Shown one piece after another: positions 2,553-58,037 of a stretch of DNA of 64,000 nucleotides. Origin of the DNA: Minisyncoccota bacterium (GTDB lineage: Bacteria > Patescibacteriota > Minisyncoccia > Phycocordibacterales > JAQTLZ01); contig JAQTSY010000005.1 in NCBI GenBank assembly GCA_028711065.1, forward strand, positions 7,656 to 71,655, written 5' to 3'. The position numbers and the translations under genes are program-made. The number at the start of each line of letters is the position of its first letter. Position 1 is the first letter of the stretch. The notes below the pieces were generated by a model. It made no database searches. It had not been told where the DNA came from and worked only from the letters and a program-made list of their open reading frames with translations.

Positions 2553-3239
2553 TTAGTGTATACGAGTTCCTTTAAATGGTTCCCCCTTGAGATACGCGTC
2601 GAGATTAATGAGGTTATTACCATTCATGACTACAACTTCGAGACCGAAACTTTCAGCCTCCTTTGCAGCAATAGGATCAAAGGGAGAACTCATTCCCGGC
2701 TCCCATTTTTCAGGAATAATTTTTCGAAATTCAGCCCAAGAAATATCCTCGATTATTTTTGCGTTTGGAAATTTTCTCGGATCTTTATCATACACATAAT
2801 TGATATTTGAAAGGTTGATGAGCTTTTTTGCGCCAATATTTTTTGCCATAAGGACGGCATCTTCGTCAGTACTGCAGCCCGGCTCATATCCAGCGCCAAT
2901 GAGAATGGCTTCTTTAAAATCGACAGGGGTGCTCGGATTATCTACAACATGAGGATGGGAAAGAGGCGCGAATATGGCACGCAAAAGCTCTGCATTTAAT
3001 TTCGTCGCTCCAATTCCAACCCAATCCGCGTCCGTTGCGCTCACTTCCGGAGAGATCGCACGCGCCGCTTCCTGGTAATTTCGAGCAGTCTTTCCGCCCC
3101 CGGCAACAATAGCAAAACGTATACCGTTTTTCGTATGGCGGATGATAAGTTCTTTAAATTTTTTTATAGAATCAACATCAATCTGCTGCGGGACCAAGAT
3201 CGAACCGCCAACAGAGATAATAATTGGGCTTTTGTCCAT
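2553..3239 (-). CDS. pyrH: Amino-acid-kinase fold protein, probably an archaeal-type UMP kinase
   Basis: 228 aa with IISVGGSILVP...VAGGG...GYEPGCSTDEDAVLMA...NINYVYDKDP, which matches the architecture of short archaeal-type uridylate kinases. Confidence 0.6.
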   Translation of the reverse strand: MDKSPIIISVGGSILVPQQIDVDSIKKFKELIIRHTKNGIRFAIVAGGGKTARNYQEAARAISPEVSATDADWVGIGATKLNAELLRAIFAPLSHPHVVDNPSTPVDFKEAILIGAGYEPGCSTDEDAVLMAKNIGAKKLINLSNINYVYDKDPRKFPNAKIIEDISWAEFRKIIPEKWEPGMSSPFDPIAAKEAESFGLEVVVMNGNNLINLDAYLKGEPFKGTRIH

Positions 3240-3264
3240 TTCTGTATGTTAGCAAAAAAAGCCC

Positions 3265-3837
3265 CTATAAGCTAGGCTTTTTGCCCCTTAATGCTTCTCC
3301 ATCTCGAATAACAATCATTTTATCTCCCTCGAATCGAACTATCGCGGACGGATCTGCGGTTAATTCTCCCCCGTCCTGATAGAAATCAACTTTTGTAGCA
3401 AAATATTTTTCTGCTTCTTCAACTGTCCTTGCAGGAGGGAGACCTTGGATATTCGCGCTCGGAGCGACGAGTGGGCCTGTTTCTTTGAGAATTGCGATGA
3501 GATCTTTATTCTGGGGTAATCGAAAAGCCAGCGACTTTCCACCTCGGTGAAGATACGCAAATTTTTCATCTGGCACTGGAAATATAATACTCACTGTCCC
3601 GGGCCAAAATTCGGGGAGATGAAGTTCAAGTTTGGGCGGGAGCGTGATCCCAAATGCCGCCAAATCGGCAACGGAAGAAATGAGAACGATGCAGGGTTTA
3701 TCTTTATCTCTCTGACGTAATTCATAGATCCGCTCGACGGCTCCGGGAGAATATGCAGAACCGACAAGTCCATAGAGGGTATCTGTTGGCATAACTCCCA
3801 CTCCGCCATTCTTTAAGCTTTTCACTATGGTATCCAT
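3265..3837 (-). CDS. tsaC: L-threonylcarbamoyladenylate synthase (Sua5/YciO/YrdC family; t6A biosynthesis)
   Basis: 190 aa with PTDTLYGL near the N-terminus and SANIQG, both YrdC-family hallmarks. Confidence 0.85.
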   Translation of the reverse strand: MDTIVKSLKNGGVGVMPTDTLYGLVGSAYSPGAVERIYELRQRDKDKPCIVLISSVADLAAFGITLPPKLELHLPEFWPGTVSIIFPVPDEKFAYLHRGGKSLAFRLPQNKDLIAILKETGPLVAPSANIQGLPPARTVEEAEKYFATKVDFYQDGGELTADPSAIVRFEGDKMIVIRDGEALRGKKPSL

Positions 3838-3896
3838 ATGGGAAAGATTCTAGCACGCGCTCCTCTTAAGAAAAAGAATATGCTAGGATAGGCTTC

Positions 3897-4529
3897 ATGG
3901 AAAAAACCCCGAAAGTCGCTTGCATCGCCCTTGATTTTGACGAAACGCTCGCTTTCATAAACAATCCGAAAACAGAACTTTTCAATACATGGGAAAAACG
4001 CGGAGTACCGAAAGAGATCGGAGAAAAAGCGTACGAAGAGATTCATGATGGAGAAGGTTTTTCTTATCCGGGAATGAAAATTGTACTCAAAAAATACGGA
4101 TACGACATGGACGAGGGATTTGAAAAAGAATTGTGGGAACGGCTCGAGAGAGGACTTCAGACATTTACGGAAGTGAAGGAAACTATCGAGAGATGGAAGA
4201 AAATGATACCTGTTGTCATTGTCACAGCAGGAGAAGAATCATTTCAGAGAGAGAAAATAAAGAGAACCGGTCTCTCCGATCTCCCCTGCATAGTCACCAG
4301 AGTTGGAAATAAAACAAAGGCGCTTCGTACTTTTATCGAAAAATATGGCGAACCAGTTGCCTTCATTGATGATAAAATAAGCGAACTAGAAACACTTAAA
4401 AATGCTGGTTTTTCAGAGAAAGAGTTGATTCCAGTGCTTCTTGATAGAACTGGGAAAACAAAAAAGAGCCAGTTTGAGACGATCTCTAGCCTCGATGATC
4501 CAAAGCTCTCTGTGATTCTAGGATTTTAG
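3897..4529 (+). CDS. HAD-superfamily hydrolase
   Basis: N-terminal IALDFDETL (HAD DxD motif I). Size 210 aa. Confidence 0.55.
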   Translation: MEKTPKVACIALDFDETLAFINNPKTELFNTWEKRGVPKEIGEKAYEEIHDGEGFSYPGMKIVLKKYGYDMDEGFEKELWERLERGLQTFTEVKETIERWKKMIPVVIVTAGEESFQREKIKRTGLSDLPCIVTRVGNKTKALRTFIEKYGEPVAFIDDKISELETLKNAGFSEKELIPVLLDRTGKTKKSQFETISSLDDPKLSVILGF

Positions 4530-5348
4530 GCTGAGCTTTTGGCGAAGATATGCAAGAGAGCCGATAAGACCTCCGGAATCAGCGAGCTCTGCTTTTTTGA
4601 TAACGGGTACGGTCGGAAATGCTTTGAGAAGCTTCTCAACGTGTTTCGCAACATTGTCCACAGATATGCCCACCTTCTTTACTACCATACTCCCACCAAT
4701 GATAACGGCATCTGGAGACCAGAAAAGAAGGGCGTTGTGGACCCCAACAGCAAAAGTCTTTTCAACTTCGTTCCACACTTTTGGATCCGTAATCTCAGCC
4801 GGATGTTTGCCGTATTTTGCCGCAATTGCCCTACCGGAAACCAAATCCCCCAGAGAAGAAACTTCGCCGTTATAATCAACAATCTGATAACCTGGCTCGA
4901 AATTAAAATGAGTCCGATCTATTTTGCCATCGACGACGCGAGATCCTCCGACACCGGTCGAAACGGTAATGTAAGCGACAATGGGAAATCCTTTGCCGGC
5001 TCCATCCATTGCTTCGCCAAGACCAACCATCGCAGTGTCATTTTCAATGAAAACAAATGATTTTGTGATATCCGCTATTGTCCGATGAAGGGGTTGATTA
5101 ATCCAACCTTGCAGATTTTTACAGACCAAGAGCTTTTCATGGGCTTCATCCAAAGTACCGGGCACACCCCCGGCGACAGCAAGAATTTTTTCTCCATTGC
5201 TAATCTCATCAACTGCTTTCTTAAATAAATTTTCGAATTTTGAAAAATCCTTCGGAGTATCGACAATAACCGGAGTCGAAAGTTCCTTCCCATCTTTAGA
5301 CCCCGCAATTCTCATTTTTGTCCCGCCAATGTCAAATACAATATACAT
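4518..5348 (-). CDS. ROK-family sugar kinase (glucokinase-like)
   Basis: MYIVFDIGGTKMR... ATPase N-terminal motif, then a ROK-like GVGGS and ENDTAMVGLGE. Confidence 0.7.
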   Translation of the reverse strand: MYIVFDIGGTKMRIAGSKDGKELSTPVIVDTPKDFSKFENLFKKAVDEISNGEKILAVAGGVPGTLDEAHEKLLVCKNLQGWINQPLHRTIADITKSFVFIENDTAMVGLGEAMDGAGKGFPIVAYITVSTGVGGSRVVDGKIDRTHFNFEPGYQIVDYNGEVSSLGDLVSGRAIAAKYGKHPAEITDPKVWNEVEKTFAVGVHNALLFWSPDAVIIGGSMVVKKVGISVDNVAKHVEKLLKAFPTVPVIKKAELADSGGLIGSLAYLRQKLSLKS

Positions 5349-5350
5349 AT

Positions 5351-6316
5351 TTATGAGATGAGTTTTTTAAATTCTTCTACCATTGGAACCTGCTCCGCTT
5401 CAACTCCATACAGCATTGCCGTATGATAGGCGGTCCAATCGGCAAGAAGAAGCGAGCTGAAAACTTTTTCACTCCTCGTCGCGCCGGTGAGAGAATATTC
5501 GAATACAGTAATTCCTCGATCTTCGTAGAGTTTCTTCGTGACCTTAAATCGCTTGCGGTTTTGCGGATGGTCAGCATCATCAGAGAGAAATACAAAAACA
5601 AATTTTTCTGAAAGTGATTTCGTCTTCCCCGCACGATCAAATCCCGTCATCTCATTATGATTCAATTCTGGAAAAACGTTGCAAAATGAGGGTATTTTAC
5701 CCGTTTCGTTGAGTTTTATTTTCCAGTTGTACGCGACGGACATGTTCTTGTCGGACGCATAGATGACCGGTACAAATCCCGACAGCTTTTTGGCCAGCTC
5801 TTTTCCTTTTGTTTCGAGAGCCTTCGGATCAAGCTTTGTTGCGAGAGTATTGAGCTCTTTCAGCAATTTTTTATTTCCCAAAAGCGTGACGAGAGCAAGC
5901 AAAGAAAAACCAAGAGCGCTTCTCGGTTGAATTCCAGTATCAGGTAAGACAATTCTCGGAATATCATTTTTCGCTGCAAATTCAATGAGATTTCCTCCAA
6001 CAGCGATGACCGCAAGATTCAACCCCTTGTCAAAGGCTGATTTTGCAAAATCAATTGTCTCTTCGGTATTTCCAGAATACGAGGATGCAATGTAAAGAGT
6101 TTCGCTTCGTTGCGCTTCGGTATAAAAAGGTAATCCGTAATTTCTGTGGATTGTGATGGGAATTTCGACATCAAGTGCCGATAAAAGATCCGCCGAAAGA
6201 TGCGAACCTCCCATTCCCCCTACTACTACCTGCCCAAACACCTGCAACTTCTCCTCATTCTCTATCTTCGGCTTCCAAGCAAACTGTTTTGCAAAATCTC
6301 GAATCGCTTTGTCCAT
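5351..6316 (-). CDS. Bifunctional phosphoglucose/phosphomannose isomerase (SIS domain, archaeal type)
   Basis: 321 aa with GGMGGSHLSADLL, SYSGNTEET and an SIS-domain layout typical of PGI/PMI. Overlapping stop/start with the upstream kinase. Confidence 0.7.
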   Translation of the reverse strand: MDKAIRDFAKQFAWKPKIENEEKLQVFGQVVVGGMGGSHLSADLLSALDVEIPITIHRNYGLPFYTEAQRSETLYIASSYSGNTEETIDFAKSAFDKGLNLAVIAVGGNLIEFAAKNDIPRIVLPDTGIQPRSALGFSLLALVTLLGNKKLLKELNTLATKLDPKALETKGKELAKKLSGFVPVIYASDKNMSVAYNWKIKLNETGKIPSFCNVFPELNHNEMTGFDRAGKTKSLSEKFVFVFLSDDADHPQNRKRFKVTKKLYEDRGITVFEYSLTGATRSEKVFSSLLLADWTAYHTAMLYGVEAEQVPMVEEFKKLIS

Positions 6317-7252: not shown

Positions 7253-8248
7253 TTATTTACCAGTAAAAACCTCCTTCGCTCCATCCCAAAATTCAGGATG
7301 ACCGTTTTGCTTCATGTAATACCACCACTCTGCTCCCCAGAGATATTGCTCACCGAAACCTGTGGTTTTTGCGAAAGAAATAATTGTGTTGAATTTGTTA
7401 ATATCCATTCGCGACAATTGATCAGAAATCGAGGTGTCAACAATTGGATGGAGAAGCCAAGGTTCGAGACCGAGTTCACTCAAAATATCTTTTTTCTTCC
7501 CAGCGATAATGTCAGCTACATTTTCTCGAATTCGATAGTATGCGGGAGTGATTGGATAACGGATTTTGCCAAAAATCGGGCTGTCTACGTAGAGGTAAAG
7601 GCTGGAGCCGAATACATCGCCCGCTTTGTGCGCACCATACCACACTCCAAGCTCTCCACTATCTGTCACCAACACCTGCCTCGCCGGATCAAGTTTTTTT
7701 ACCAGAGCAATTTCTTTACCGAAAAAAGCTGTATCGAGAGGTTCGCACGTCTGTCTTGCAAATACAGAAAGAAAAGGCTCATTCTCAACTTGCCAATAAG
7801 TAATATTGGGATAATTTTTATAACGATTGACGACTGTCGTAATGTAATCGAAAATTTTCTCCTGCCGTGTTGCTGTATCAAGTTTACTGGCCCAATCTGG
7901 CACATGGCATTCTGGCCAGCCAGGCAGACGCTCCCCAACAGCAAAAATCACCCCGGCATCGCGTAATTTTGCTTGCTGCATCTGAAAATCAAGCACAGAG
8001 AAATCATACATCCCCTCCTTCGGCTCTGTTCCTGGCCAATGCGCCGAAAGACGGAAATTTCTGACTTTTAGATCGTCAAGAAGCGCAAGATAGACCGTCT
8101 TCCAAGGAAGTCCGAGCTCATCTGAATGGAATTTGCTAAATGAAACTCCATAGACTATGTTTTCAGGAACCACTCGAAACGATAGGAGAGAGAGAAACAG
8201 AACGAGTGCGATGACTATTATGAGGAGAAATTTAAAAAAACGTCTCAT
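7253..8248 (-). CDS. Membrane-anchored TIM-barrel glycoside hydrolase (GH-A clan, GH5-like)
   Basis: N-terminal TM/signal segment and a WQVENEP catalytic acid/base-type motif. 331 aa. Confidence 0.5.
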   Translation of the reverse strand: MRRFFKFLLIIVIALVLFLSLLSFRVVPENIVYGVSFSKFHSDELGLPWKTVYLALLDDLKVRNFRLSAHWPGTEPKEGMYDFSVLDFQMQQAKLRDAGVIFAVGERLPGWPECHVPDWASKLDTATRQEKIFDYITTVVNRYKNYPNITYWQVENEPFLSVFARQTCEPLDTAFFGKEIALVKKLDPARQVLVTDSGELGVWYGAHKAGDVFGSSLYLYVDSPIFGKIRYPITPAYYRIRENVADIIAGKKKDILSELGLEPWLLHPIVDTSISDQLSRMDINKFNTIISFAKTTGFGEQYLWGAEWWYYMKQNGHPEFWDGAKEVFTGK

Positions 8249-10420: not shown

Positions 10421-10879
10421 TTATTCGCGGATAGAAATGGCCTTTTTAGTCACCTGAATCCATCGAAAAAAGAAAAAACCTATCACTGAAAAGAGAAGAC
10501 CTATACAAAAGAAGGTAATAGGAGTTCCCCAAAGCCCACCAAATGTATAAATTTTGTGCTGAGAGAAATCAGCAGAATAAATTACTTGAACCCTATCACC
10601 AATCTGATAAGGTTCCGCATTAATGCTAGACCCTGAATCGGAGGAGAAAGTCGTCTGATGCCCATCCACGATAAAAGAAACCTGTGGATAATAAGTATAT
10701 ACTGCGATACTCGAATTAGCAGATCTTGATATGACCTGCTTATATCCAACGACCTGTCCGCTTGTAACACTACCTCCCTGAAGAAGTCTGAAGCTAGAAA
10801 ATGCTACAAAGATAGATACGGAAAGAAAAACTACACCAACAGCACAGAAACAGACCATAAAAATCTTGAGAAATGTCAT
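10421..10879 (-). CDS. Small membrane protein with two terminal TM helices around a beta-rich core (DUF3592-like)
   Basis: 152 aa, TM at both ends, central ...SGQVVGYKQV...YTYYPQVSFIVDGH...IGDRVQVIY.... Confidence 0.4.
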   Translation of the reverse strand: MTFLKIFMVCFCAVGVVFLSVSIFVAFSSFRLLQGGSVTSGQVVGYKQVISRSANSSIAVYTYYPQVSFIVDGHQTTFSSDSGSSINAEPYQIGDRVQVIYSADFSQHKIYTFGGLWGTPITFFCIGLLFSVIGFFFFRWIQVTKKAISIRE

Positions 10880-10958
10880 GGATTGGAAAAGATAATTATG
10901 CTATTAGTTTAACATAAAATAGATAAAAAACTATCTGTTTACAAATCCGTACCCTATT

Positions 10959-10992
10959 CCTTAAATACTATCATATATGATAGTATTTAAGG
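10959..10992. promoter_or_regulatory. 34-bp perfect palindrome (core AAATACTATCATATATGATAGTATTT) in the divergent promoter region. Candidate operator or RBS-sequestering hairpin.
   Basis: CCTTAAATACTATCATATATGATAGTATTTAAGG is its own reverse complement. It ends 10 nt before the ATG at 11003, and the AAGGA Shine-Dalgarno lies inside its 3' arm. An identical 26-bp core recurs at 11439-11464. Confidence 0.5.
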
Positions 10993-11002
10993 ATACACAC
11001 AC

Positions 11003-11410
11003 ATGACACACGTATCAAGAAAACCGATGAAAAGTAAGGTTTCGAAACGACTCGAAAAAGAACTCTTGGCAGCTCTTGAACTCGCTTTTCATTCCAAACA
11101 ATCTAAGCCCCTCCTCCAATTACTTCTCACTCATACCGAGAAAATCATGTTGTCGAAACGCCTGGCAATACTGCACATGCTCGGACAAAATATACCGCAA
11201 GCAAAGATAGAGAAGGTATTGAAAGTCACAGCAGTTACTGTTTCGCGCTATACTCAAATTCTGAAAAGGGGTAAAAATGAATTGCCGGAAAATAAGCTGA
11301 AATTGAAGCGAGGCAGAAGAAAATCAAATGAACCAAACCTCTATAACGCTTTTGGACTCATGCCACCAATCGTCGGCCCAGGACGATGGGATTTTCTTGA
11401 TCGGTTGTAG
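11003..11410 (+). CDS. TrpR-like / YerC-YecD family small DNA-binding protein
   Basis: 135 aa. ...EKIMLSKRLAILHMLGQNIPQAKIEKVLKVTAVTVSRYTQIL... looks like the helix-turn-helix of the TrpR/YerC family. Confidence 0.55.
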   Translation: MTHVSRKPMKSKVSKRLEKELLAALELAFHSKQSKPLLQLLLTHTEKIMLSKRLAILHMLGQNIPQAKIEKVLKVTAVTVSRYTQILKRGKNELPENKLKLKRGRRKSNEPNLYNAFGLMPPIVGPGRWDFLDRL

Positions 11411-11433
11411 ACATTCAAATCAAAACTAACCCG

Positions 11434-11469
11434 ACAGAAAATACTATCATATATGATAGTATTTTCTGT
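11434..11469. terminator. 36-bp perfect palindrome (same 26-bp core as at 10959). Candidate bidirectional terminator and/or second operator.
   Basis: ACAGAAAATACTATCATATATGATAGTATTTTCTGT lies between the convergent gene ends 11410 and 11526. T-rich sequence follows it on the plus strand. Confidence 0.5.
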
Positions 11470-11525: not shown

Positions 11526-12809
11526 TTAATACTCCAGAGCCTGTTCCATCTTTTTTTCGGCGAGGATCTGCGGAATGCCGTATGCCAGGCGATTCAATGT
11601 GACAATTTTATCTTTTATGCGAGAGGCGTATTTTTCTGATTCGGGAGGAATGCCGATGCCAGAGAAAGCGGTGCTTGTTTTCCCGTCGATCATGAGTTTT
11701 ATATAAAAATGAAAACGAGGAAGCCCCAAAAAGTCATCGACGGTCATCGGTTCAAATTCTTTCTCCAAAATCTCCGCGTCCTCGGCGCCAACTTCAAACG
11801 CGAGCATTGTGCCGATGTTTCCAAGCACGGCCTTCATAATCCCTTCTGGAAGTTGCGCCAAATACTGATTGGTAATGTGAATTCCCAACGCATATTTTCG
11901 GGATTCACTCAGGAGGCTTGTGAACGTGTCGGTCGTAAAATTTTGAAACTCATCGACGTAAAGATAGAACGGCACACGCCTATTCGCAGATTCATTCGCC
12001 CGTCTTTGAATCGCCCCCTGAAGACGCGAAATGAGAATGAGACCGAGCATATGCGCGTTTATATCTCCAATTTTTCCTTTTGAGAGATTCACAAGCAAAA
12101 TTTTATTACTGTTCATCAAGGTATCGAAATTGAAACTGCTCGTGCGCTGACCGATGATATTTCGCATCAGCTTATTGTTCATAAAATGCCCGAATTTGGA
12201 GAGGAAATAGTTGAGCATTTCACTCTTGTGGAAATCCGAAGTCTTCGCCATCTGTTTCGTCCAGAAATCAATCACCATCGGGTCTTTCAATTCTTTCCGC
12301 TTTTTCATCTCGAATTCTTTATCAACAAAAAGCTTTGGAATTTCCAATAGGCTTCCACCCTCCGGCCCCGCCATAACAGTCAAAGCGGCATTTCGAAGCC
12401 AATGCTCGAATTGAGGGCCGATGATTCCAGTTTTTTCCGGATCAAATAATTTATAGAATATTTGAATACATTCCCCCACCAAAAAATCTTTTTCCTGGTC
12501 ATCCCGTGCTTCCAAAAGATTTAATCCAAAAGGAAATTCCGTATCGCTTGGGTCAAAAAGGATGACATCTTCAAGCCGCTCTTTCGGAATATGTGAAAGA
12601 AGCCAATCAACAGACTCTCCATGCGGATCAATAAAACAAACCCCATGACCCTCTTTGATATCCTGAAGGCACATGTTTTGAAAAACGGTGGACTTCCCCA
12701 CTCCGGTTTTCCCAATCATATACATGTGTCGAAGACGATCTTTCTCATTCATTCCGATGAGGGTACGTCTGCCGTGATATTCATTTGCGCCGATGGTAAT
12801 AAATGACAT
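11526..12809 (-). CDS. P-loop NTPase of the VirD4/TraG/TrwB-like (FtsK-HerA superfamily) type; the kind annotated as type IV secretion system DNA-binding domain protein
   Basis: Walker A MIGKTGVGKST, DPHGE motif, Walker B YLYVDEFQNF. The start is set at the internal Met (MSFITIG). The upstream 21 codons in the ORF track fall inside a palindromic repeat. Confidence 0.5.
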   Translation of the reverse strand: MSFITIGANEYHGRRTLIGMNEKDRLRHMYMIGKTGVGKSTVFQNMCLQDIKEGHGVCFIDPHGESVDWLLSHIPKERLEDVILFDPSDTEFPFGLNLLEARDDQEKDFLVGECIQIFYKLFDPEKTGIIGPQFEHWLRNAALTVMAGPEGGSLLEIPKLFVDKEFEMKKRKELKDPMVIDFWTKQMAKTSDFHKSEMLNYFLSKFGHFMNNKLMRNIIGQRTSSFNFDTLMNSNKILLVNLSKGKIGDINAHMLGLILISRLQGAIQRRANESANRRVPFYLYVDEFQNFTTDTFTSLLSESRKYALGIHITNQYLAQLPEGIMKAVLGNIGTMLAFEVGAEDAEILEKEFEPMTVDDFLGLPRFHFYIKLMIDGKTSTAFSGIGIPPESEKYASRIKDKIVTLNRLAYGIPQILAEKKMEQALEY

Positions 12810-12822
12810 GTTAATTGTAGAT

Positions 12823-12987
12823 GAAATTATGAAAATGATGTTTTTTAAAATATTGCGCAAACTCGCGTGCACGGTCTGTCAACGACCCGCCTCGGGCGGG
12901 CTTATTGACAGACGCGAGTTGAGCATAGCAAAAATTCTCGCAGGGAATTTTATGTCGTATTTTAAAAAACATCATTTTCATAATTTC
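12823..12987. repeat. 165-bp MITE-like palindromic element: 30-bp perfect terminal inverted repeats around a 105-bp core with nested inverted repeats and a GC hairpin
   Basis: GAAATTATGAAAATGATGTTTTTTAAAATA (12823-12852) is the exact reverse complement of 12958-12987. Inside are ACTCGCGT..TCTGTCAA / TTGACAGACGCGAGT and CCCGCC-TCG-GGCGGG. The two mirror-image artefact ORFs (12793..13035 + and 12811..13005 -) come from this symmetry. Confidence 0.6.
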
Positions 12988-12997
12988 GTAAGTCATA

Positions 12998-13315
12998 TTA
13001 TTCAAAAAAAGTTAGGTCAAGCGATTTTTCCGTAAAATAATTCTCATCCAAAACTCGTTTTCGATTTTTCTTTGCCTCCTGAAGCTCTTTTTCTTTTTGG
13101 ATAATAAGAGCAAATTCTTTTGCTTCCCTGCTTATTTTTTCGATAAGCGATTTCTGAAGAGGAATGGAAATATACTCGGAAAGCGAAGAAAGCATTTCTG
13201 TTCGTTGTGCGTGCATTTTTTCAAGAGAAGGAGATGCGGCAAGTTTCCCGTCGATTTTCGCCTCCTCCAAACTCATCCCCACTTCCACTGAATGTAATTT
13301 TTCGTTTTTTCTCAT
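12998..13315 (-). CDS. Small coiled-coil protein (hypothetical)
   Basis: 105 aa, charged and helical (EKELQEAKKNRKR...). Its start is 2 nt downstream of the end of the Clp-like gene, so it is probably co-transcribed. Confidence 0.35.
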   Translation of the reverse strand: MRKNEKLHSVEVGMSLEEAKIDGKLAASPSLEKMHAQRTEMLSSLSEYISIPLQKSLIEKISREAKEFALIIQKEKELQEAKKNRKRVLDENYFTEKSLDLTFFE

Positions 13316-13316
13316 C

Positions 13317-14981
13317 CTATTTTTTGTTTAAAAGGGAGCGGGCAAGAAGCGATTCACATGTTTCCTCAATAAATCGCTTTACTGGACGTGCGCCGAAACG
13401 CGGGTCAACCATGGTTTTTATTCTTGCTTCGAGAAGTTTCGGATCAATATCAAACTGCACTCTATGTTTCGAAAGTCGTGCTTCAATTTTCTTGATTTCA
13501 AGCTGTGCAACCTCGACAAGACCCTTGAGAGAAAGCGGATTGAAAATGAGAATGCTGTCGAAGCGATTCAAAAATTCAAGGCGGAAAGTCTTCGCAAGTG
13601 CTGGTATTATTGTTTCTTTGAGAAAGGCTTCGCTTCCCAGATCAGTTCCCTTTTCGAATTCTTTCAGAATTTCATCCACAGCAATATTCGAAGTCGCCAT
13701 AATGATAGAGTGGCGAGCGTCTACGGTTTCATTTTGTCCTGAAGTGAGACGCCCGTCATCGAGAACCTGAAGAAAAATATCGAATACTTTTGGGTGTGCC
13801 TTTTCAATTTCATCGAGAAGAATGAGGCTGTGAGGTTCTTCGCGAAGCGCGTTGGTAAGAGCTCCTCCGTTTTCATATCCGATGTATCCTGCCGGAGCGC
13901 CGATAAGCCTCTGTACAGTGTGATCCTGCCCAAATTCCGACATATCAAAACGAATAAATGTTTCGCTTCGTCCGAACATATTTTCTGCAATAAGTTTTGC
14001 TGTTTCCGTTTTCCCCACACCGGATGGACCGAGCATAAGGAATGAACCGAGAGGCTTATTCGGATTTCGAATTCCTAGTTTCGCTCTTTGGAGCGTCGCA
14101 GCGATTTTCTTTATTGCTCCTTTTTGGTTGATTATTCTTTCGCTCAAAACAGATTCAAGATTTTTGAGCACATGAAGTTCATCGGGCTTTAATTGCGCTT
14201 TAGGAATTCCTGTTTTCCCAGCAACAACAGAAGCAATAATGTCGTCCGAAAGCTCTTTCTTTCCAAGCGACACCGCAAAGCCGAGGCTTTCATCAAGAAG
14301 ACTGACTGCTCCCCGAGGCAATTGCCCTAGTTTCGGAAATCGTTCTACAAAGCCAACAATTTCCTTGAGCACCGTAGCCGAAACCAAAATATGCTCCCCA
14401 TTCAAATTCGGCAGTGCTCTTTCGAGAATTTGTGCGTATTCAAGCGAAGTTTGATTCTTCACCTGTATCGTTTCAAAAGATTTCACAAACGCTGGATGTT
14501 CCCGCTCGAGCCAAGCATATTCATTCGGTTCAAGGGCCAAAACGATTCGCACGTGAGACTTTTTCAGAAGTATCTGGTAGAGGCGAAAAATATTTTTCAA
14601 AAGTGAACCGTTGCCAAATACCGCTCTGCCAAAATTATCAATAAATAAAACCGAAGGAGGCAAAGTGATCAGCGCCTGCTCAAAATATTTCGCGTACGTT
14701 TCATTTTCAAGTTCGTATAAATGCTCCGCATCAAGTTGGACGAATTGGAGCGAATCAAACTCTTTCTTCCCTGCCATTTTTTTCATCCAGCCATAGACAA
14801 GGGTAGTTTTCCCAATGCCATTTGAGCCAACAACAAGTACATTGTTGCTTATCTTTCGAGTTACAACACGAGTCAATCTCTCCATTTCTTCGGTACGACC
14901 AATCACATTCGGTAACTTTCCCGCTCGCACTTCTTTGCGAAGATCAAAATATTCAATTTTTTTAAAGTGAAAGTCAGTCAT
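13317..14981 (-). CDS. Clp/Hsp100-family double-AAA+ ATPase (ClpB/ClpC-like core without N-terminal and middle domains)
   Basis: D1 has Walker A GSNGIGKTT and an atypical Walker B VLFIDNFGR, with DN where DE is expected. D2 has Walker A GPSGVGKTE, Walker B LILLDEIEKAH, and sensor/arginine-finger context (HSIIMATSN). Confidence 0.7.
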   Translation of the reverse strand: MTDFHFKKIEYFDLRKEVRAGKLPNVIGRTEEMERLTRVVTRKISNNVLVVGSNGIGKTTLVYGWMKKMAGKKEFDSLQFVQLDAEHLYELENETYAKYFEQALITLPPSVLFIDNFGRAVFGNGSLLKNIFRLYQILLKKSHVRIVLALEPNEYAWLEREHPAFVKSFETIQVKNQTSLEYAQILERALPNLNGEHILVSATVLKEIVGFVERFPKLGQLPRGAVSLLDESLGFAVSLGKKELSDDIIASVVAGKTGIPKAQLKPDELHVLKNLESVLSERIINQKGAIKKIAATLQRAKLGIRNPNKPLGSFLMLGPSGVGKTETAKLIAENMFGRSETFIRFDMSEFGQDHTVQRLIGAPAGYIGYENGGALTNALREEPHSLILLDEIEKAHPKVFDIFLQVLDDGRLTSGQNETVDARHSIIMATSNIAVDEILKEFEKGTDLGSEAFLKETIIPALAKTFRLEFLNRFDSILIFNPLSLKGLVEVAQLEIKKIEARLSKHRVQFDIDPKLLEARIKTMVDPRFGARPVKRFIEETCESLLARSLLNKK

Positions 14982-14991
14982 TGCGAATTAT

Positions 14992-16827
14992 TTATGCGGC
15001 TCGTCTCATTGTAATACCGCTCGATGGATCACTTTCGGTATAATTTCTCTCCACTTCTACCTCATCTCTTGCCGGAGATTGTGAGCCCGCTGCGCCTCCC
15101 AGAATCCCAGTCCTCTCTCGGGATTCCGCAAAACTTACAATTTTTTCTTGCCCGCCTCCAGTCGCAGGCATCTCTAGAGCCATTTGAGACCCATCTTGGT
15201 TTTCATTTTCTCGTTCCCGCTCCACACCAACCTTTTGCAGAGATTCTTGTCTTACTTCAGCACGAGAAATGTAAGGAGAAATAATAGGTGCTTTTTCAGA
15301 AGTTTCCTTCGCTTCAGATTTTTCAGTTTTTTCTCGGCTTTCAACTTCCGGTTTCTGTTCTTTTACTGGAATAATCTTTTCCTCTTTTATTTGAGGTTTT
15401 TCAGCAACAGTTTCTTCGGACTTTTCGACTTTTTCAAGCTTTTTGATTTCTGGTTTTACTAATTTTACTTTTTCAATGACAGGAACGATTTTCACTGGCT
15501 CTAATTCTTCTTTAGACTCTTCCATCTTCCTCTCTCGAATAATCGGTTCTTCTTTTGGAATTTCATCCTTAATAACAACATCCTGGGCCTCCACGACGGG
15601 AGACACTTCAACTTCTTTCTCCAACACTTCAGGAAGTATCTTTAACTCGATACCCGTAGGCATTTCTTCTTGCACCCGAACGTCAATAATAACCTTCTCA
15701 ACTTTATCCGTTTCTAATACAACTTCTTCAGGTGTAGTTTGGTCTTGAGAAATTATAGTTTCTTTATCCTCTTCAATTTTTACTTGCGGTTCTTTGGTTT
15801 CGATTTCTGGCGCGACATCCTCTATAATAATTTCTTCATCTTTGATTTCAGACATTTCTACCGCAACAACCTTTGTTTCTTCAGTTCTTTCAGTCTTTTT
15901 TGTAACAGCAGAAGTATCTGCTTTTTCTTGAGGCTTGAGAACCTCTTTTTGAACTGCTTCTGGTTTAGAAACGGTTTCCGGAGAAGATAGCTGCGCTTTC
16001 AAAGTATTAAAGTACGATGTGCCGTTAAACAAAGAGGCGATAGAAAAAGTATCGATGGTATTGGCCTTTTCTACTTCATCGTGTGTGGTTTGGCCTTCTT
16101 GAGCATTTGAAAAAGTCCCCACAGAATTTTCCATTCCCAACTGCCCACGCAATTCAGCATTTACATCAATAACAAGCGGTTCGGCCTGCATGAAAGGATC
16201 TCCATTATCAAAAGGCATACTTCCTTCATCAGAACCATCATCTTGATTGGCTTCAGTGAGCTTTACGAGTTCTTGTTCTGGATGTAAGTAATGGGAATAT
16301 TTAATCTCATTATTCTGGCCTTCAAGACGAACAAAAGTTACATGGGTACCTTTTTCATCAACAATTTTAAAAGAATAAGATCCTTTTTCAGCCAGACCCC
16401 TTCTCATCTCTTCATCTATCTTTCGAAAATTCTCATTCTCGTTCACAGAACCTTTCCCCTCCTTATCAGTCAGACACTCTTCGGTCGCCAAATCATAGAT
16501 TTTTCCATCTGTTTCATTTAAGTAAGTTTTATCACCGGAAATATTTATTTCATCATCTACCCCCCACTCCTTACCCCTTCCCCCATGTTCTTTCGCGATA
16601 ATTGCTCGAATATCTCCGTCTCTCCACTCTCCTCTTTCGTCTTTTCGTGAAGGCTTTTCTCCTAATTCTGTTTTAGACTCTCCTTCGGCCCCAGTCTCTT
16701 CAACACGCGAAGCTTCAGGATTGCCAAAATCTTCTCTGTAATCAAAAGCACGAAGAGGCTCTTCCGCGACGAAAGAACCTAAACCTGCCTGTTCTTCTAA
16801 TTCTGCTGTTGGAGCTGGCTCATCCAT
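14992..16827 (-). CDS. Large hyper-acidic E/K-rich low-complexity repeat protein (hypothetical, about 610 aa)
   Basis: Long runs of EKxxEVKP-type repeats (KEEPIIRERKMEESKEELEPVKIVPVIEKVKLVKPEIKK...). No signal peptide. The start is set at MDEPAP. The 28 upstream codons in the track are hydrophobic junk. Confidence 0.5.
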   Translation of the reverse strand: MDEPAPTAELEEQAGLGSFVAEEPLRAFDYREDFGNPEASRVEETGAEGESKTELGEKPSRKDERGEWRDGDIRAIIAKEHGGRGKEWGVDDEINISGDKTYLNETDGKIYDLATEECLTDKEGKGSVNENENFRKIDEEMRRGLAEKGSYSFKIVDEKGTHVTFVRLEGQNNEIKYSHYLHPEQELVKLTEANQDDGSDEGSMPFDNGDPFMQAEPLVIDVNAELRGQLGMENSVGTFSNAQEGQTTHDEVEKANTIDTFSIASLFNGTSYFNTLKAQLSSPETVSKPEAVQKEVLKPQEKADTSAVTKKTERTEETKVVAVEMSEIKDEEIIIEDVAPEIETKEPQVKIEEDKETIISQDQTTPEEVVLETDKVEKVIIDVRVQEEMPTGIELKILPEVLEKEVEVSPVVEAQDVVIKDEIPKEEPIIRERKMEESKEELEPVKIVPVIEKVKLVKPEIKKLEKVEKSEETVAEKPQIKEEKIIPVKEQKPEVESREKTEKSEAKETSEKAPIISPYISRAEVRQESLQKVGVERERENENQDGSQMALEMPATGGGQEKIVSFAESRERTGILGGAAGSQSPARDEVEVERNYTESDPSSGITMRRAA

Positions 16828-17066
16828 TTTGTATAAAAAAATAAAGACAAAAAATCCTTCTCGATGAAAGAAGGTGACGAAGAGACGCACGCGCGCACTC
16901 TTTAATCTCACATCCTTTACTCGAGGACTGACGAAACATACTTTCGTGCGCGGTATTCGGACTTCTCTTTTTCAAGAGTTACCGTAGCGGTACTGTGCCG
17001 GAATTACACCGGACTTCCCCAACGCAACGAAATAATTTTTCAAACACAACAATCAAAACCGGAAAC

Positions 17067-35336: not shown

Positions 35337-36668
35337 TTACTGATACTGTATGAAGCTTGGCCGAGGAATAAGCTTTAGAACTTCAGCAGGCGTCATCATT
35401 CGAGGACTCGGCGGTAAAATATCATTTTTATAGAAAAGTTTGAAGCCGGTGAATTGCACTGGGTTTAGATATTCATACGCATTATAGGTACCCATTTTTT
35501 TCCCTGGAGAGCCCCAACCGTCCATATCCATGACAACCTGCACTTCAGGAAGCGGTTTGATCTGCTTATAATTCGTCACCATTGCTTGGGTGTAGCGATG
35601 GACGATGAGCACTTTTGGCGGCAAATTATTTGCGCGGACTAGTCCCGCCAAATAATTTGCCGCCCAGTTTATATCTGTCGCATCCACAGTTCCCACGACA
35701 GTCCCCGGTCTCGCCTTGCTTGGCGCCATGGCAAATTCTGGATCAATCGCCAAGTGCACCTGTGGCATTTTCAAATATTTTTCAAGAAGCGGGACTTCTG
35801 TCTGTACCGTCGAGAGCCCGACTTGAACTTCGAGAATCACGATACCATTCACTTGGGAAGCAAGGTCAAGCGCGTGATCCATCTGGCTCGAAGGCATTCT
35901 CGCTCGATATTTTCCATCCGCCCCCGCACTTCCCTGCGCCGTCACGGCAATGTAGTCGATAGCGGGCATTACAGGGGTAACTGGATCGGCAATCTCCCAC
36001 TTGTGTATTTCACCTTGGAGCTTTGCGAGCATTTCAGCAGGAGGATACTGGCCAAGAACTCCCATGCCTTTCGCGTAGAAATTTCCGTAGTAAGCGATGA
36101 TGCGCTTGAATGGCAAGATGGCCCCACCAAGCGGGTAGAGAGGCTTTCCATCTGCATTTAGAATTTTTACCGGCCACAATTTGGGAACAACCCTCGGCAC
36201 TGTGGTGGTAGCTTTTTTTGTCGTCGAAGTGCCCACAAGGGTAGGCGTGGGAATAGTAGAAGAACCAATTTGAGTTCCATTATTCGCGAGTATCGCCATT
36301 CTTCTGTCGTAATCAACAAAATCTAGAACAATCGGGGTTGGGGTAGGCGAATCAGTAGATTCGGGGCTTGGCCCAAAACTATTTCTGATTTTCGAAATCG
36401 GCTTATAGTCAGCTACCACGTAGTTATTTTGACCAGGCAGCCAATTGGTATACCCCACAACGTATACGACAAAAATACCCACAAGAGAACAAAATGCCAC
36501 TATAAGAATAGGGAGCAGAACTTTCCTCGCTTTATTCTTCTTTTTCTTTTCCGTAGAAATAGTAAATGAAAAAAAATTTGTAAATGCTTTGCTTAGTGTA
36601 CCATATCTTTTTCCGCAACTGCCTTTCGCAAATACTCTTTGCATTCCTTGAAACACTCTTCGCAGCAA
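35337..36668 (-). CDS. Membrane-anchored extracytoplasmic protein (hypothetical; TIM-barrel-like C-terminus possible)
   Basis: TM helix, then a Pro/Thr-rich linker (SPTPTPIVLD...TTKKATTTVPR), then a conserved-looking C-terminal domain. The annotated start overlaps trhO by 76 nt, so the real start is probably a downstream or non-ATG codon. Confidence 0.35.
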   Translation of the reverse strand: MLRRVFQGMQRVFAKGSCGKRYGTLSKAFTNFFSFTISTEKKKKNKARKVLLPILIVAFCSLVGIFVVYVVGYTNWLPGQNNYVVADYKPISKIRNSFGPSPESTDSPTPTPIVLDFVDYDRRMAILANNGTQIGSSTIPTPTLVGTSTTKKATTTVPRVVPKLWPVKILNADGKPLYPLGGAILPFKRIIAYYGNFYAKGMGVLGQYPPAEMLAKLQGEIHKWEIADPVTPVMPAIDYIAVTAQGSAGADGKYRARMPSSQMDHALDLASQVNGIVILEVQVGLSTVQTEVPLLEKYLKMPQVHLAIDPEFAMAPSKARPGTVVGTVDATDINWAANYLAGLVRANNLPPKVLIVHRYTQAMVTNYKQIKPLPEVQVVMDMDGWGSPGKKMGTYNAYEYLNPVQFTGFKLFYKNDILPPSPRMMTPAEVLKLIPRPSFIQYQ

Positions 36669-40804: not shown

Positions 40805-40918
40805 GCTTTACAAAACGTATGAGAAAGATGTTCATTACAAAATTGCAAAATTACAACACTAAAAAACATCTGGCACTATAGTGCCAGATGTTTTTTCTTT
40901 CCTCATCGAAATTCCCGC

Positions 40919-47186: not shown

Positions 47187-47353
47187 GGCTATTGCTCCTT
47201 TCTTTCAATGAGTCTCCAAAATGAATGATTGCCTCCTTTTCTTAATACTACACAAAATTAATGATGTGTCAATATATAATTTCGGGCACAACAAGAAACC
47301 AGCCCCGTTTCCTTTAGGAAACGGGGCTGGTTTTAGAGACTCTGTCGAACAAA

Positions 47354-53655: not shown

Positions 53656-53733
53656 GAACCCCTCGTCTCCGGATCGCCAGAGACAGTAAAATCAAGCCAC
53701 TTTATAGCAAATTTTGAGAAAAATGTCGATGCA

Positions 53734-53759
53734 ATAAAACTGGCCGGGGCCAGTTTTAT
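53734..53759 (-). terminator. Perfect 12-bp-stem hairpin (bidirectional terminator) just downstream of pyrG
   Basis: ATAAAACTGGCC-GG-GGCCAGTTTTAT, followed on the plus strand by TGTTTTTATTTTTT. The pyrG stop codon is at 53765. Confidence 0.55.
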
Positions 53760-53764
53760 TGTTT

Positions 53765-57155: not shown

Positions 57156-58037
57156 TTAAAGAGCCTTTTCTGCTTCGATAAAAAGATCGAGGTCGCCTGC
57201 AAGCACTTTGTCAGCATTCGAGGTTTCTGCTTCGGTACGATGATCTTTCACCATCTTGTACGGATGGAGCACATACGAGCGAATCTGGCTTCCCCATTCA
57301 ATATCTGTTGAAGAGCTTATTGCCATCCCTTTTTCTTTTTTCTTCCTGTCATCTTCCTGTTTTTTGTAGATCTTCGCTTTTATCATTGCGATAGCTTTCT
57401 CGCGATTTTGCTGCTGGCTTCGCTCGCTCGTTACGTGCACGGAAAATCCTGTTGGAATATAGACTGCACGAACCGCAGTCTCCCGCTTATTCACATTTTG
57501 TCCTCCAGGACCGCCAGCTTTTGCAGTTTCAATTTTAATATCCTGCGCAGGTATTTCGATCTCATCCATTTTTTCGAATTTCGGCAAAACTTCAACAAGC
57601 GAAAAGGAAGTTTGTCGTATGCCTTTTGCACCAAAGGGTGAGATGCGAACGAGACGATGCACTCCCGATTCATTCTTCAGCGTTCCGTACGCCCCCTTCC
57701 CTTCAATCTCGAAGGAAATATTGCGGTATCCGCCGTGGTCATTTTCATTTTGAGAGAGAATTGTCATTCCCCATCCCTTTTTGTCGGCATATTTGGTGTA
57801 CATCTGAAAGAGCATTCCAGAAAAATCTTCCGCGTCATCTCCGCCGGCGCCGGAAAAGATGGTGATGATAGCATCGCCCTTGTCGAATTTCCCCACACCA
57901 GAAAGCTCCTCTTTGAGCGTTTGGATTTCTTTAATGACCACCTGAGCCCGATTTTTGTCAGCCCAAAAATCGGGCTCTGACATACTCGCCTCGAGTTCCC
58001 TTATTTTCTCTTCTTTTGTCTGTTTTATTTCTGGCAT
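57156..58037 (-). CDS. prfB: Peptide chain release factor 2
   Basis: SPF tripeptide (RISPFGAKG), GGQ motif ([10 protein letters not shown]), and the C-terminal RF domain. 293 aa. There is no upstream frameshift segment: a tRNA gene ends 10 nt upstream. Confidence 0.85.

Follow-up and report, generated by a model that had tools for sequence, protein, structure and literature searches.

The stretch of DNA considered here is a 64,000-nt window (the whole of the sequence analysed) from contig JAQTSY010000005.1 of a Minisyncoccota bacterium, in which a gene for a 135-aa protein of the TrpR superfamily lies between two copies of one perfect palindrome. Judging from sequence, and with a probability of about 0.6, the two palindromes are cognate operators of the protein encoded between them, and the second copy doubles as a bidirectional terminator. 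The bracket is conserved, the palindrome co-varies with the adjacent protein gene, and the operators of TrpR and HisR (= YerC) are 20-bp palindromes (PMC9413887), which together make a cognate protein-operator pair the most economical reading. A preliminary description of this locus had entertained an autoregulatory operator combined with a terminator or second operator, an RNA hairpin controlling translation, and a tiny palindrome-bounded cassette. Comparison across genomes speaks best for the first of these, with the bracket kept, the same variant found at both ends and the length matching that of TrpR-family operators.

The palindrome pair and the protein between them

The 26-mer AAATACTATCATATATGATAGTATTT is found at 10963-10988 and again at 11439-11464. 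No third copy exists in the 64-kb window when up to three mismatches are allowed, and a search with the 14-nt core at up to two mismatches returns the same two sites and no others; the copy number of the source organism is that counted within these 64 kb. None of 100 dinucleotide-preserving shuffles produced a copy, and the expected number is 0; the earlier claim that the palindrome occurs twice holds. Chance or artefact is ruled out by the shuffles together with the recurrence of the motif in independent assemblies from many studies. Both copies extend to 36-bp perfect palindromes with no spacer. Palindrome 1 (10958-10993) has the outer arms TCCTT/AAGGA and holds the 20-bp motif TACTATCATATATGATAGTA at 10966-10985, while palindrome 2 (11434-11469) has the outer arms ACAGA/TCTGT and holds the motif at 11442-11461. 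The preliminary description was thus right that the outer arms differ, but its range of 34-36 bp for the dyad symmetry gives way to 36 bp at both copies. The dyads are 476 bp apart, and no direct repeats flank the palindrome-gene-palindrome unit.

The regulator gene occupies 11003-11410 on the plus strand. Palindrome 1 ends 9 nt before its ATG, placing the dyad 27 nt 5′ of the start, and palindrome 2 begins 23 nt after its stop and 57 nt from the 3′ end of a convergent VirD4-like gene; the distances of 10 and 24 nt given earlier hold within 1 nt, as do the other positional statements. Palindrome 1 lies in a 123-bp gap that the regulator gene shares with a divergent DUF3592-like gene, and palindrome 2 lies between the convergent ends of the regulator gene (plus strand) and the VirD4-like gene (minus strand), in keeping with the divergent and convergent settings previously described. 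The right outer arm of palindrome 1, AAGGA (10989-10993, plus strand), reads as a Shine-Dalgarno-like sequence 9 nt 5′ of the ATG. It would pair with UCCUU in the left arm only if transcription started upstream of palindrome 1.

As RNA, palindrome 1 folds with -20.2 kcal/mol (z -8.0), and palindrome 2 with -22.6 kcal/mol on the plus strand and -22.1 kcal/mol on the minus strand; z ranges from -5 to -8 for the window palindromes. A terminator scan flags palindrome 2, with 16 pairs followed by the tail ATATTTTGAG. This copy has the features of an intrinsic bidirectional terminator, namely a stable hairpin and a U-rich tract near the stop on both strands, the minus-strand tail being the less U-rich. 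Palindrome 1 fails as a terminator by its position in a divergent promoter region. A known RNA family is ruled out, all Rfam matches to the element being sub-threshold miRNA or sRNA noise.

In the mechanism proposed, a homodimer of the 135-aa protein would read the 20-bp sequence YACTATCATATATGATAGTR. Copy 1 covers the likely -10, transcription-start and Shine-Dalgarno region, with TATGAT or TAGTAT inside the right half-site as candidate -10 elements, so that a bound dimer would repress its own gene; it may also control the divergent string of DUF3592-like and GH1 genes. Copy 2 would form the tip of a hairpin with a 16-bp stem, terminating both the regulator gene and the convergent operon of ClpB-like and VirD4-like genes. 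Protein bound there might provide a second operator, either as a loop partner of copy 1 or as a roadblock against read-through into the small gene.

The protein matches the Pfam family Trp_repressor (PF01371) with an E-value of 1.9e-12 and 47.5 bits against a cutoff of 27, its residues 19-94 aligning with positions 4-80 of the 88-position profile, and it is identical to a database entry named 'Trp family transcriptional regulator' from a Candidatus Pacebacteria metagenome-assembled genome (MAG). Against the NCBIfam equivalog for TrpR (TIGR01321) it scores 30.6 bits, below the cutoff of 67.25. It gives no match to the YerC/YecD equivalog (TIGR02531), where a Saccharibacteria relative reaches 24.8 bits against a cutoff of 42.2. 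Because these scores fall below both equivalog cutoffs, the protein is, by profile score, a member of Trp_repressor that is not an ortholog of TrpR or HisR and belongs to a clade of the superfamily separate from TrpR and YerC/HisR.

Comparison with known structures is also suggestive of TrpR. A phmmer search of the PDB returns only E. coli TrpR chains, colinear over residues 9-94 including the helix-turn-helix (HTH) helices, and equivalents of TrpR T44, R54 and R84 align in the window protein. The AlphaFold2 monomer model has helices at residues 11-29, 34-41, 44-61, 66-73, 77-89 and 96-99, in the order of TrpR helices A-F, at a mean confidence (pLDDT) of only 66.9. TrpR chains are also the best Foldseek matches in the PDB, weakly so for this monomer model (E 0.58, TM-score 0.41-0.52), as expected because an intertwined dimer was modelled as a monomer. 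Residues 98-135 form a disordered tail that carries the motif PPIVGPGRWDF, kept in the clade of the window protein. Within this tail, the segment encoded at 11309-11407 (residues ~103-135) contains FGL(M/L)PPIVGPGRWDFL, which is kept in the clade P0001-P0005, is absent from Saccharibacteria-type relatives and is predicted to be disordered. The tail motif may be a short linear motif for binding a partner.

An exhaustive search at E<=1e-3 finds homologs in 518 clusters at 50% identity, nearly all of them full-length proteins of 130-145 aa. The phage and plasmid collections contain no homologs of the 135-aa protein, and the two viral contigs that do carry the 18-nt centre of the palindrome are both without the regulator gene. 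For the collections searched, both findings speak against an origin in phages or plasmids.

Conservation of the bracket and its variants

The locus L001, whose regulator is 89% identical in amino acid sequence, carries the window's 26-bp core both before and after the gene. Over 10943-11469, the window and L001 are 81% identical in DNA, and all 52 core positions are identical, for which the chance is about 2e-5 (0.81^52; our arithmetic). In L001 the downstream copy reaches 44 bp of perfect symmetry, and a canonical terminator stands separately behind it. Compared with copy 2 of the window, this copy shows mirrored changes in both arms, ACAAACATA/TATGTTTGT against ACAGA/TCTGT. At 59% identity, L002 has TAAAGTATCATATATGATACTTTA on both sides, the upstream copy ending 4 nt 5′ of the ATG, and at 54% identity L003-L008 have TAAATTTCGATATATG(A/G)TAATTTA on both sides. 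The preliminary description had named absence of the core beside orthologous regulators as telling against its proposal; the site is present beside the orthologs.

Searching metagenomes by protein contributed 62 loci at 25-42% identity, and the comparison covers 83 TrpR-like genes in all, with 25-89% identity. In most of them, one palindrome has its centre 14-36 nt 5′ of the start and a second lies 11-59 nt past the stop. Although many contigs are truncated, a strict score places sites on both sides of 32 of the 83 genes, and in 26 of these 32 the 14-nt core is the same at both ends. In the 220 kb of loci that were chosen by protein, sites occur at 1.05 per kb within 120 nt of the gene and at 0.038 per kb elsewhere, a 28-fold difference in density. 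The distance from dyad to start is constant within clades: +14 to +18 in the Saccharibacteria type, +25 in a large Paceibacteria-type group and +27 in the window. Such fixed spacing fits a site that overlaps the core promoter of a gene with a very short or absent leader. The spacing from palindrome to palindrome, 453-487 bp, tracks gene length and not helical phase.

The cores include TATCATATATGATA, which is the majority form, and the variants TACGATATATCGTA, CACCCATATATGGGTG, CACCATATATGGTG and TAACATATATGTTA. A central ATATAT is invariant across the scored variants, and the variable positions, +-4 to +-9 from the dyad, are those at which major-groove contacts of an HTH dimer would be expected. 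The locus L072 (JBBAAE010000010.1) encodes two TrpR-like paralogs, at 347-872 and 7555-8000, each with its own variant: CACCCATATATGGGTG palindromes stand on both sides of one gene, and ACTATCATATATGATAGT follows the other, the start of which lies beyond the fetched stretch. On this sequence evidence, the two look like a natural specificity-swap pair. At L117, a 46-bp perfect palindrome 91 nt past the regulator stop has the centre ACTATCATGCATGATAGT, in which ATGCAT replaces ATATAT, and adjoins a normal copy.

Sites across Patescibacteria and competing explanations

The wider distribution was surveyed with the exact 18-mer ACTATCATATATGATAGT only, in a collection of species-representative genomes. 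The 18-mer is present in 110 stretches, compared with ~9 expected for a uniform sequence of 596 Gb (our arithmetic). Fourteen of these stretches come from other phyla, which is roughly the chance level, and ~96 from Patescibacteria or unclassified MAGs, among them Saccharibacteria, Kaiserbacteria, Paceibacteria, Campbellbacteria, Parcubacteria and others. A single genome has at most 8 exact copies, at intervals of 10-70 kb, and L066, a near-complete contig of 676 kb, has one. Position +-10 is C or T on the left and G or A on the right in ~95% of sites, making the motif the 20-mer YACTATCATATATGATAGTR. No sequence is conserved beyond +-10, and the length fits the ~18-20-bp palindromic operators of the TrpR superfamily. 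Fourteen of the 18-mer loci hold a TrpR-like gene bracketed by sites, several with a third copy 70-180 bp away. Some copies stand from a few to ~200 nt from contig ends (L029 at 6-23, L019 at 1549-1566, L082 at 5071-5088), which suggests that long palindromes break short-read assemblies and that copy numbers in MAGs are probably underestimates.

The setting of the sites was scored with simple calls of open reading frames (ORFs) of at least 120 aa in the fetched loci and compared with random positions. Sites fall inside genes in 24% of cases, against 77% of random positions. Intergenic sites away from the regulator comprise 16 convergent, 5 divergent and 34 tandem cases, the random shares being 18%, 17% and 65%; with these conservative gene calls the convergent bias is moderate. 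In tandem gaps, the dyad lies at a median of 104 nt from the upstream stop and 222 nt from the downstream start. The neighbours that recur at ends or junctions are the end of rpoC, ATP synthase alpha/beta-family genes, pgk, ychF and S1-domain genes, and those that recur at starts are dnaG, obg and ruvB, all identified by Pfam except rpoC, which was recognized by reading the sequence. No trp, aro or his genes are among the recurrent neighbour families at 129 sites, where only recurrent clusters were annotated.

Inside genes, translation of the 18-mer in frame gives T-I-I-Y-D-S, or LSYMI in the other open frame (a reverse transcriptase-like ORF, L095/L097). Intragenic copies lie in Mur ligases (L030, L034, L055, L107, L073), in MTS methyltransferases (L023, L032, L092) and at L012, L014, L021 and L058. 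The copies in Mur ligases, including MurC, occupy three positions, at approximately residues 62, 270 and 367, where they replace variable-loop residues at about equal length. Three positions and equal length indicate independent gains by substitution, not insertion, and rule out a mobile 18-bp palindrome that inserts into genes.

Two arrays stand apart. At the contig end L176 (Ga0210050_1000460, 2836-4040), a regulator gene whose product is 26% identical to the window protein has two copies before it and, after it, an AT-rich non-coding stretch of more than 700 bp with six copies of the cognate ACATTACGATATATCGTAATGT at 66-105-bp spacing. There are also two split copies, whose half-sites are separated by GC-rich inserts of 19-20 nt, each insert being nearly the reverse complement of the other. 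By analogy, this layout resembles an iteron, a centromere or an origin. In a Kaiserbacteria MAG, L022 (JANPCG010000002.1) has a gene-free stretch of ~740 bp at 5524-6259 beside obg, with at least four core copies and isolated half-site fragments, and no TrpR-like gene within the 8-kb locus.

At almost every site, perfect symmetry continues beyond the core into outer arms that differ from those of every other site. Among 114 sites of Patescibacteria or unclassified origin, the arms reach at least 11 nt in 74 (~7 by chance) and at least 18 nt in 31, the longest being 29 nt, which gives a 58-bp palindrome. In the left arms, A makes up 48% of the letters and G 10% (A 263, T 122, C 110, G 53); the right arms are correspondingly T-rich. 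Median arm length is greatest between convergent genes (17 nt) and smallest inside genes (10 nt). The symmetry ends abruptly, with 1.6 of the next 6 positions pairing after the first mismatch against 1.5 at random, and G.U-compatible mismatches are not enriched in the outer arms of these sites. With neither G.U tolerance nor residual symmetry, the outer arms show no sign of selection as RNA stems.

The window itself contains other long palindromes. At 40861-40896 there is a 36-bp perfect palindrome, AAAAAACATCTGGCACTA|TAGTGCCAGATGTTTTTT, with A6...T6 and -22.9 kcal/mol, whose tip CACTA|TAGTG is like the family core minus its central TCATATATGA. Four more long palindromes, perfect or nearly so and with 0-6 nt in the loop, lie at 35617-35664, 47296-47333, 53732-53761 and 57944-57977. 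All five are probably generic bidirectional terminators of this genome. At 3′ ends the conserved element looks like a bidirectional intrinsic terminator with an operator at its tip, since its arms are polarised, are longest between convergent genes and are built like those of the generic terminators of the window.

Several observations weigh against a pair of cognate operators as the full account. The lean towards 3′ ends and the share of sites inside genes differ from a classical promoter-operator regulon, and the gene-free arrays of L176 and L022 hint at a role beyond autoregulation. The arms are complementary well past the ~20 bp that a TrpR-type dimer contacts, even at a divergent-promoter copy with 18-nt arms, which an operator model leaves unexplained. 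For copies at divergent promoters, palindrome 1 of the window among them, an optional 5′ untranslated region (UTR) hairpin (AAGGA/UCCUU), a cruciform or the 'perfecting' of the palindrome by template switching are possible reasons. In the window, a sigma-70 promoter scan finds no plus-strand promoter upstream of the regulator gene. Finally, a comparison of recognition-helix residues with core variants reveals no evident simple code. The preliminary view of the pair as a local device also needs correction, as the 20-bp core is common across Patescibacteria, with many copies at 3′ ends, inside genes and in arrays, and with outer arms like terminator stems.

Some of these observations would be explained if the protein were a chromosome-bound, site-specific factor that marks ~5-40 palindromes per genome, acting as a roadblock or insulator or as an organiser of the nucleoid or of segregation, with the bracket around its own gene reflecting side-effect autoregulation. 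This is an unlikely alternative, to be taken seriously all the same. It draws on the few, widely spaced copies in each genome, on the depletion of sites in coding DNA and their 3′-end bias, on their recurrence after rpoC, after or between ATP synthase genes and at pgk, ychF and S1 genes, on the independent gains in Mur-ligase genes and on the gene-free arrays of 4-8 sites in L176 and L022. The sites were found by exact 18-mer only, however, and with crude gene calls. The window holds only the two regulator-flanking sites in 64 kb, L066 has its single exact copy in 676 kb, and perfect symmetry provides no polarity. In its widest form, which is likewise unlikely, protein and palindrome would constitute a Patescibacteria-wide DNA-marking system and not a metabolite-sensing local repressor. 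In genomes with a very small set of regulators, TrpR-fold dimers would then sit at the tips of bidirectional terminators behind highly expressed operons (rpoC, ATP synthase, pgk), in Mur-ligase coding sequences and on gene-free arrays, in a roadblock or insulator role or a chromosome-organising, centromere-like one, and the bracket would be an autoregulatory signature of the Tus/TerB kind.

It is rather improbable that the element works through RNA alone, with palindrome 1 as a 5′-UTR hairpin that sequesters the Shine-Dalgarno sequence, palindrome 2 as a terminator or 3′ stabiliser, and neither bound by the adjacent protein. In its favour, the hairpins are stable (-20 to -22.6 kcal/mol), palindrome 1 has AAGGA as its right outer arm, and the arms vary from site to site yet stay perfectly complementary, as the mirrored changes in L001 copy 2 illustrate, with A-rich left and T-rich right arms that are longest between convergent genes. 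A hairpin, however, needs neither an 18-20-nt sequence kept across classes of Patescibacteria nor a palindrome that continues through the loop. G.U pairs and bulges are lacking and the symmetry stops abruptly, unlike selected RNA stems. The variants also go with the neighbouring protein gene, even where a single genome has paralogs, copies lie in frame inside genes, and L001 has its separate canonical terminator right after copy 2. The RNA hairpin of the preliminary description is best kept as a layer added to the operators, mainly at copy 2, and not as a replacement for them.

The genes beside the pair are of interest as possible targets and for what they say about mobility. The divergent gene (10421-10879, minus strand) encodes a DUF3592-like membrane protein, a weak match at 24.9 bits, just below the cutoff of 25.3. 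It heads a minus-strand string that also includes a GH1 beta-glucosidase gene and two ORFs lacking annotation, one of them for a multi-pass membrane-like protein, and it is a possible co-regulated target through the intergenic region that holds palindrome 1. The convergent gene (11526-12872, minus strand) encodes a VirD4/TraD-like ATPase whose true start is probably at ~12809, giving a 427-aa form. It is the last gene of a conserved operon (11526-16911, minus strand) of the candidate phyla radiation (CPR), whose other genes encode a 639-aa E/K-rich protein, a ClpB-like double-AAA+ ATPase and a 105-aa protein. Relatives at 77% identity (L183-L185) keep the gene order of this operon, in which the E/K-rich protein measures ~600-640 aa, but the DNA past its 3′ end is unrelated. 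The VirD4-like gene has thousands of homologs at 70-78% identity.

A mobile palindrome-gene-palindrome cassette that moves or excises by recombination, with solitary palindromes as attachment sites or scars in the manner of pdif modules or IS200-type hairpin ends, is very improbable: homology between the window and L001 (10943-11469) does stop at palindrome 2, beyond which L001 has rplK (by our reading of its sequence) in place of the VirD4-like gene, the regulator gene lies beside dnaG, obg or ruvB in different genomes where others have solitary sites or arrays (L011 at ruvB, L022 at obg), and relatives with the syntenic VirD4-like operon have no regulator gene at that position, but the sole ORF encodes an HTH protein and no recombinase, transposase or HUH/Y1 motif, neither a target-site duplication nor a clean empty site was found (the DNA past the relatives' operon being unrelated), the intragenic copies arose by equal-length point substitution, dyad-to-start spacing and gene orientation are fixed, homologs are absent from the phage and plasmid collections, and CPR genomes at such divergence are heavily rearranged in any case. 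For the cassette of the preliminary description, what holds is that homology with L001 ends at the palindromes; the lack of a recombinase and of an empty site, and the origin of the intragenic copies by substitution, speak against it.

Comparison with known systems

Patescibacteria (CPR) have tiny genomes and very few transcription factors, and to our knowledge almost nothing is established about how their genes are regulated. Full-text literature searches found no paper on the 20-bp motif or on TrpR-like proteins of CPR bacteria. The locus described here offers a concrete, testable putative protein-site pair for gene regulation in this group. Its candidate targets are core growth genes, namely dnaG, obg, ruvB and murC, along with the points where the rpoC, ATP synthase and pgk units end. 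Taken together, the operator-terminator fusion and the operator-gene-operator layout suggest a compact means of insulating and autoregulating a single gene.

The closest parallels to a cognate operator pair are E. coli TrpR, with its trp, aroH and trpR operators, and HisR (YerC) of Firmicutes, which are likewise small all-helical HTH proteins with the Pfam domain Trp_repressor and a perfect or near-perfect palindrome of ~20 bp. Autoregulation of E. coli trpR uses a site at its own gene that overlaps the promoter region, as is proposed for copy 1. The window protein differs in falling below both equivalog cutoffs, in its additional PPIVGPGRWDF tail and in its Patescibacteria host. Furthermore, trp and his genes do not adjoin the sites as recurrent neighbours, a second identical site follows the stop codon, and other sites are found at 3′ ends, within coding sequences and as arrays.

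In lac O1/O2, gal OE/OI and deo, an operator at the promoter is paired with an identical or nearly identical one a few hundred bp further downstream, and the 476 bp seen here are of that order. In contrast to those systems, the second putative operator is found past the stop codon, where it coincides with a terminator hairpin, and the distance between the two tracks gene length. Copy 2 is also like the bidirectional intrinsic terminators found between convergent genes, sharing their long stem, left-hand A-tract and right-hand T-tract as well as equal folding on both strands. What sets it apart from these is the hairpin tip, a 20-bp sequence found throughout the radiation that is palindromic through the loop and also occurs at a divergent promoter and inside genes.

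Repetitive extragenic palindromic (REP) elements and bacterial interspersed mosaic elements (BIMEs) are similarly palindromic, mostly intergenic and often located at 3′ ends between convergent genes. They occur in tens to hundreds of copies and are kept as whole elements, whereas here there are two copies in 64 kb and at most eight exact ones per genome, and only the core is kept. No REP-associated tyrosine transposase (RAYT) is seen in the window, and the variants co-vary with the adjacent HTH gene. The preliminary description had asked whether the core is a generic REP-like repeat present at dozens of unrelated sites; unrelated sites do occur in other Patescibacteria, but not in such numbers. 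A REP-like element is rejected on the copy numbers counted in the 64-kb window and as exact 18-mers in other Patescibacteria, and on the lack of whole-element conservation, the arms being unique to each site.

Tus/TerB and RTP/Ter provide a further likeness, in that a small DNA-binding protein has its own gene flanked by a site and a handful of sites are scattered elsewhere, some of them intragenic, although binding is putative for the protein described here. Ter sites are asymmetric and polar, whereas the present sites are perfectly symmetric, and the fold differs, with no sign of a relation to the replication terminus. Ultimately, what the comparison of sequences presents as new with respect to all these systems is a conserved operator-gene-operator layout, the apparent fusion of an operator with a terminator hairpin, and a 20-bp motif shared by several lineages of Patescibacteria.

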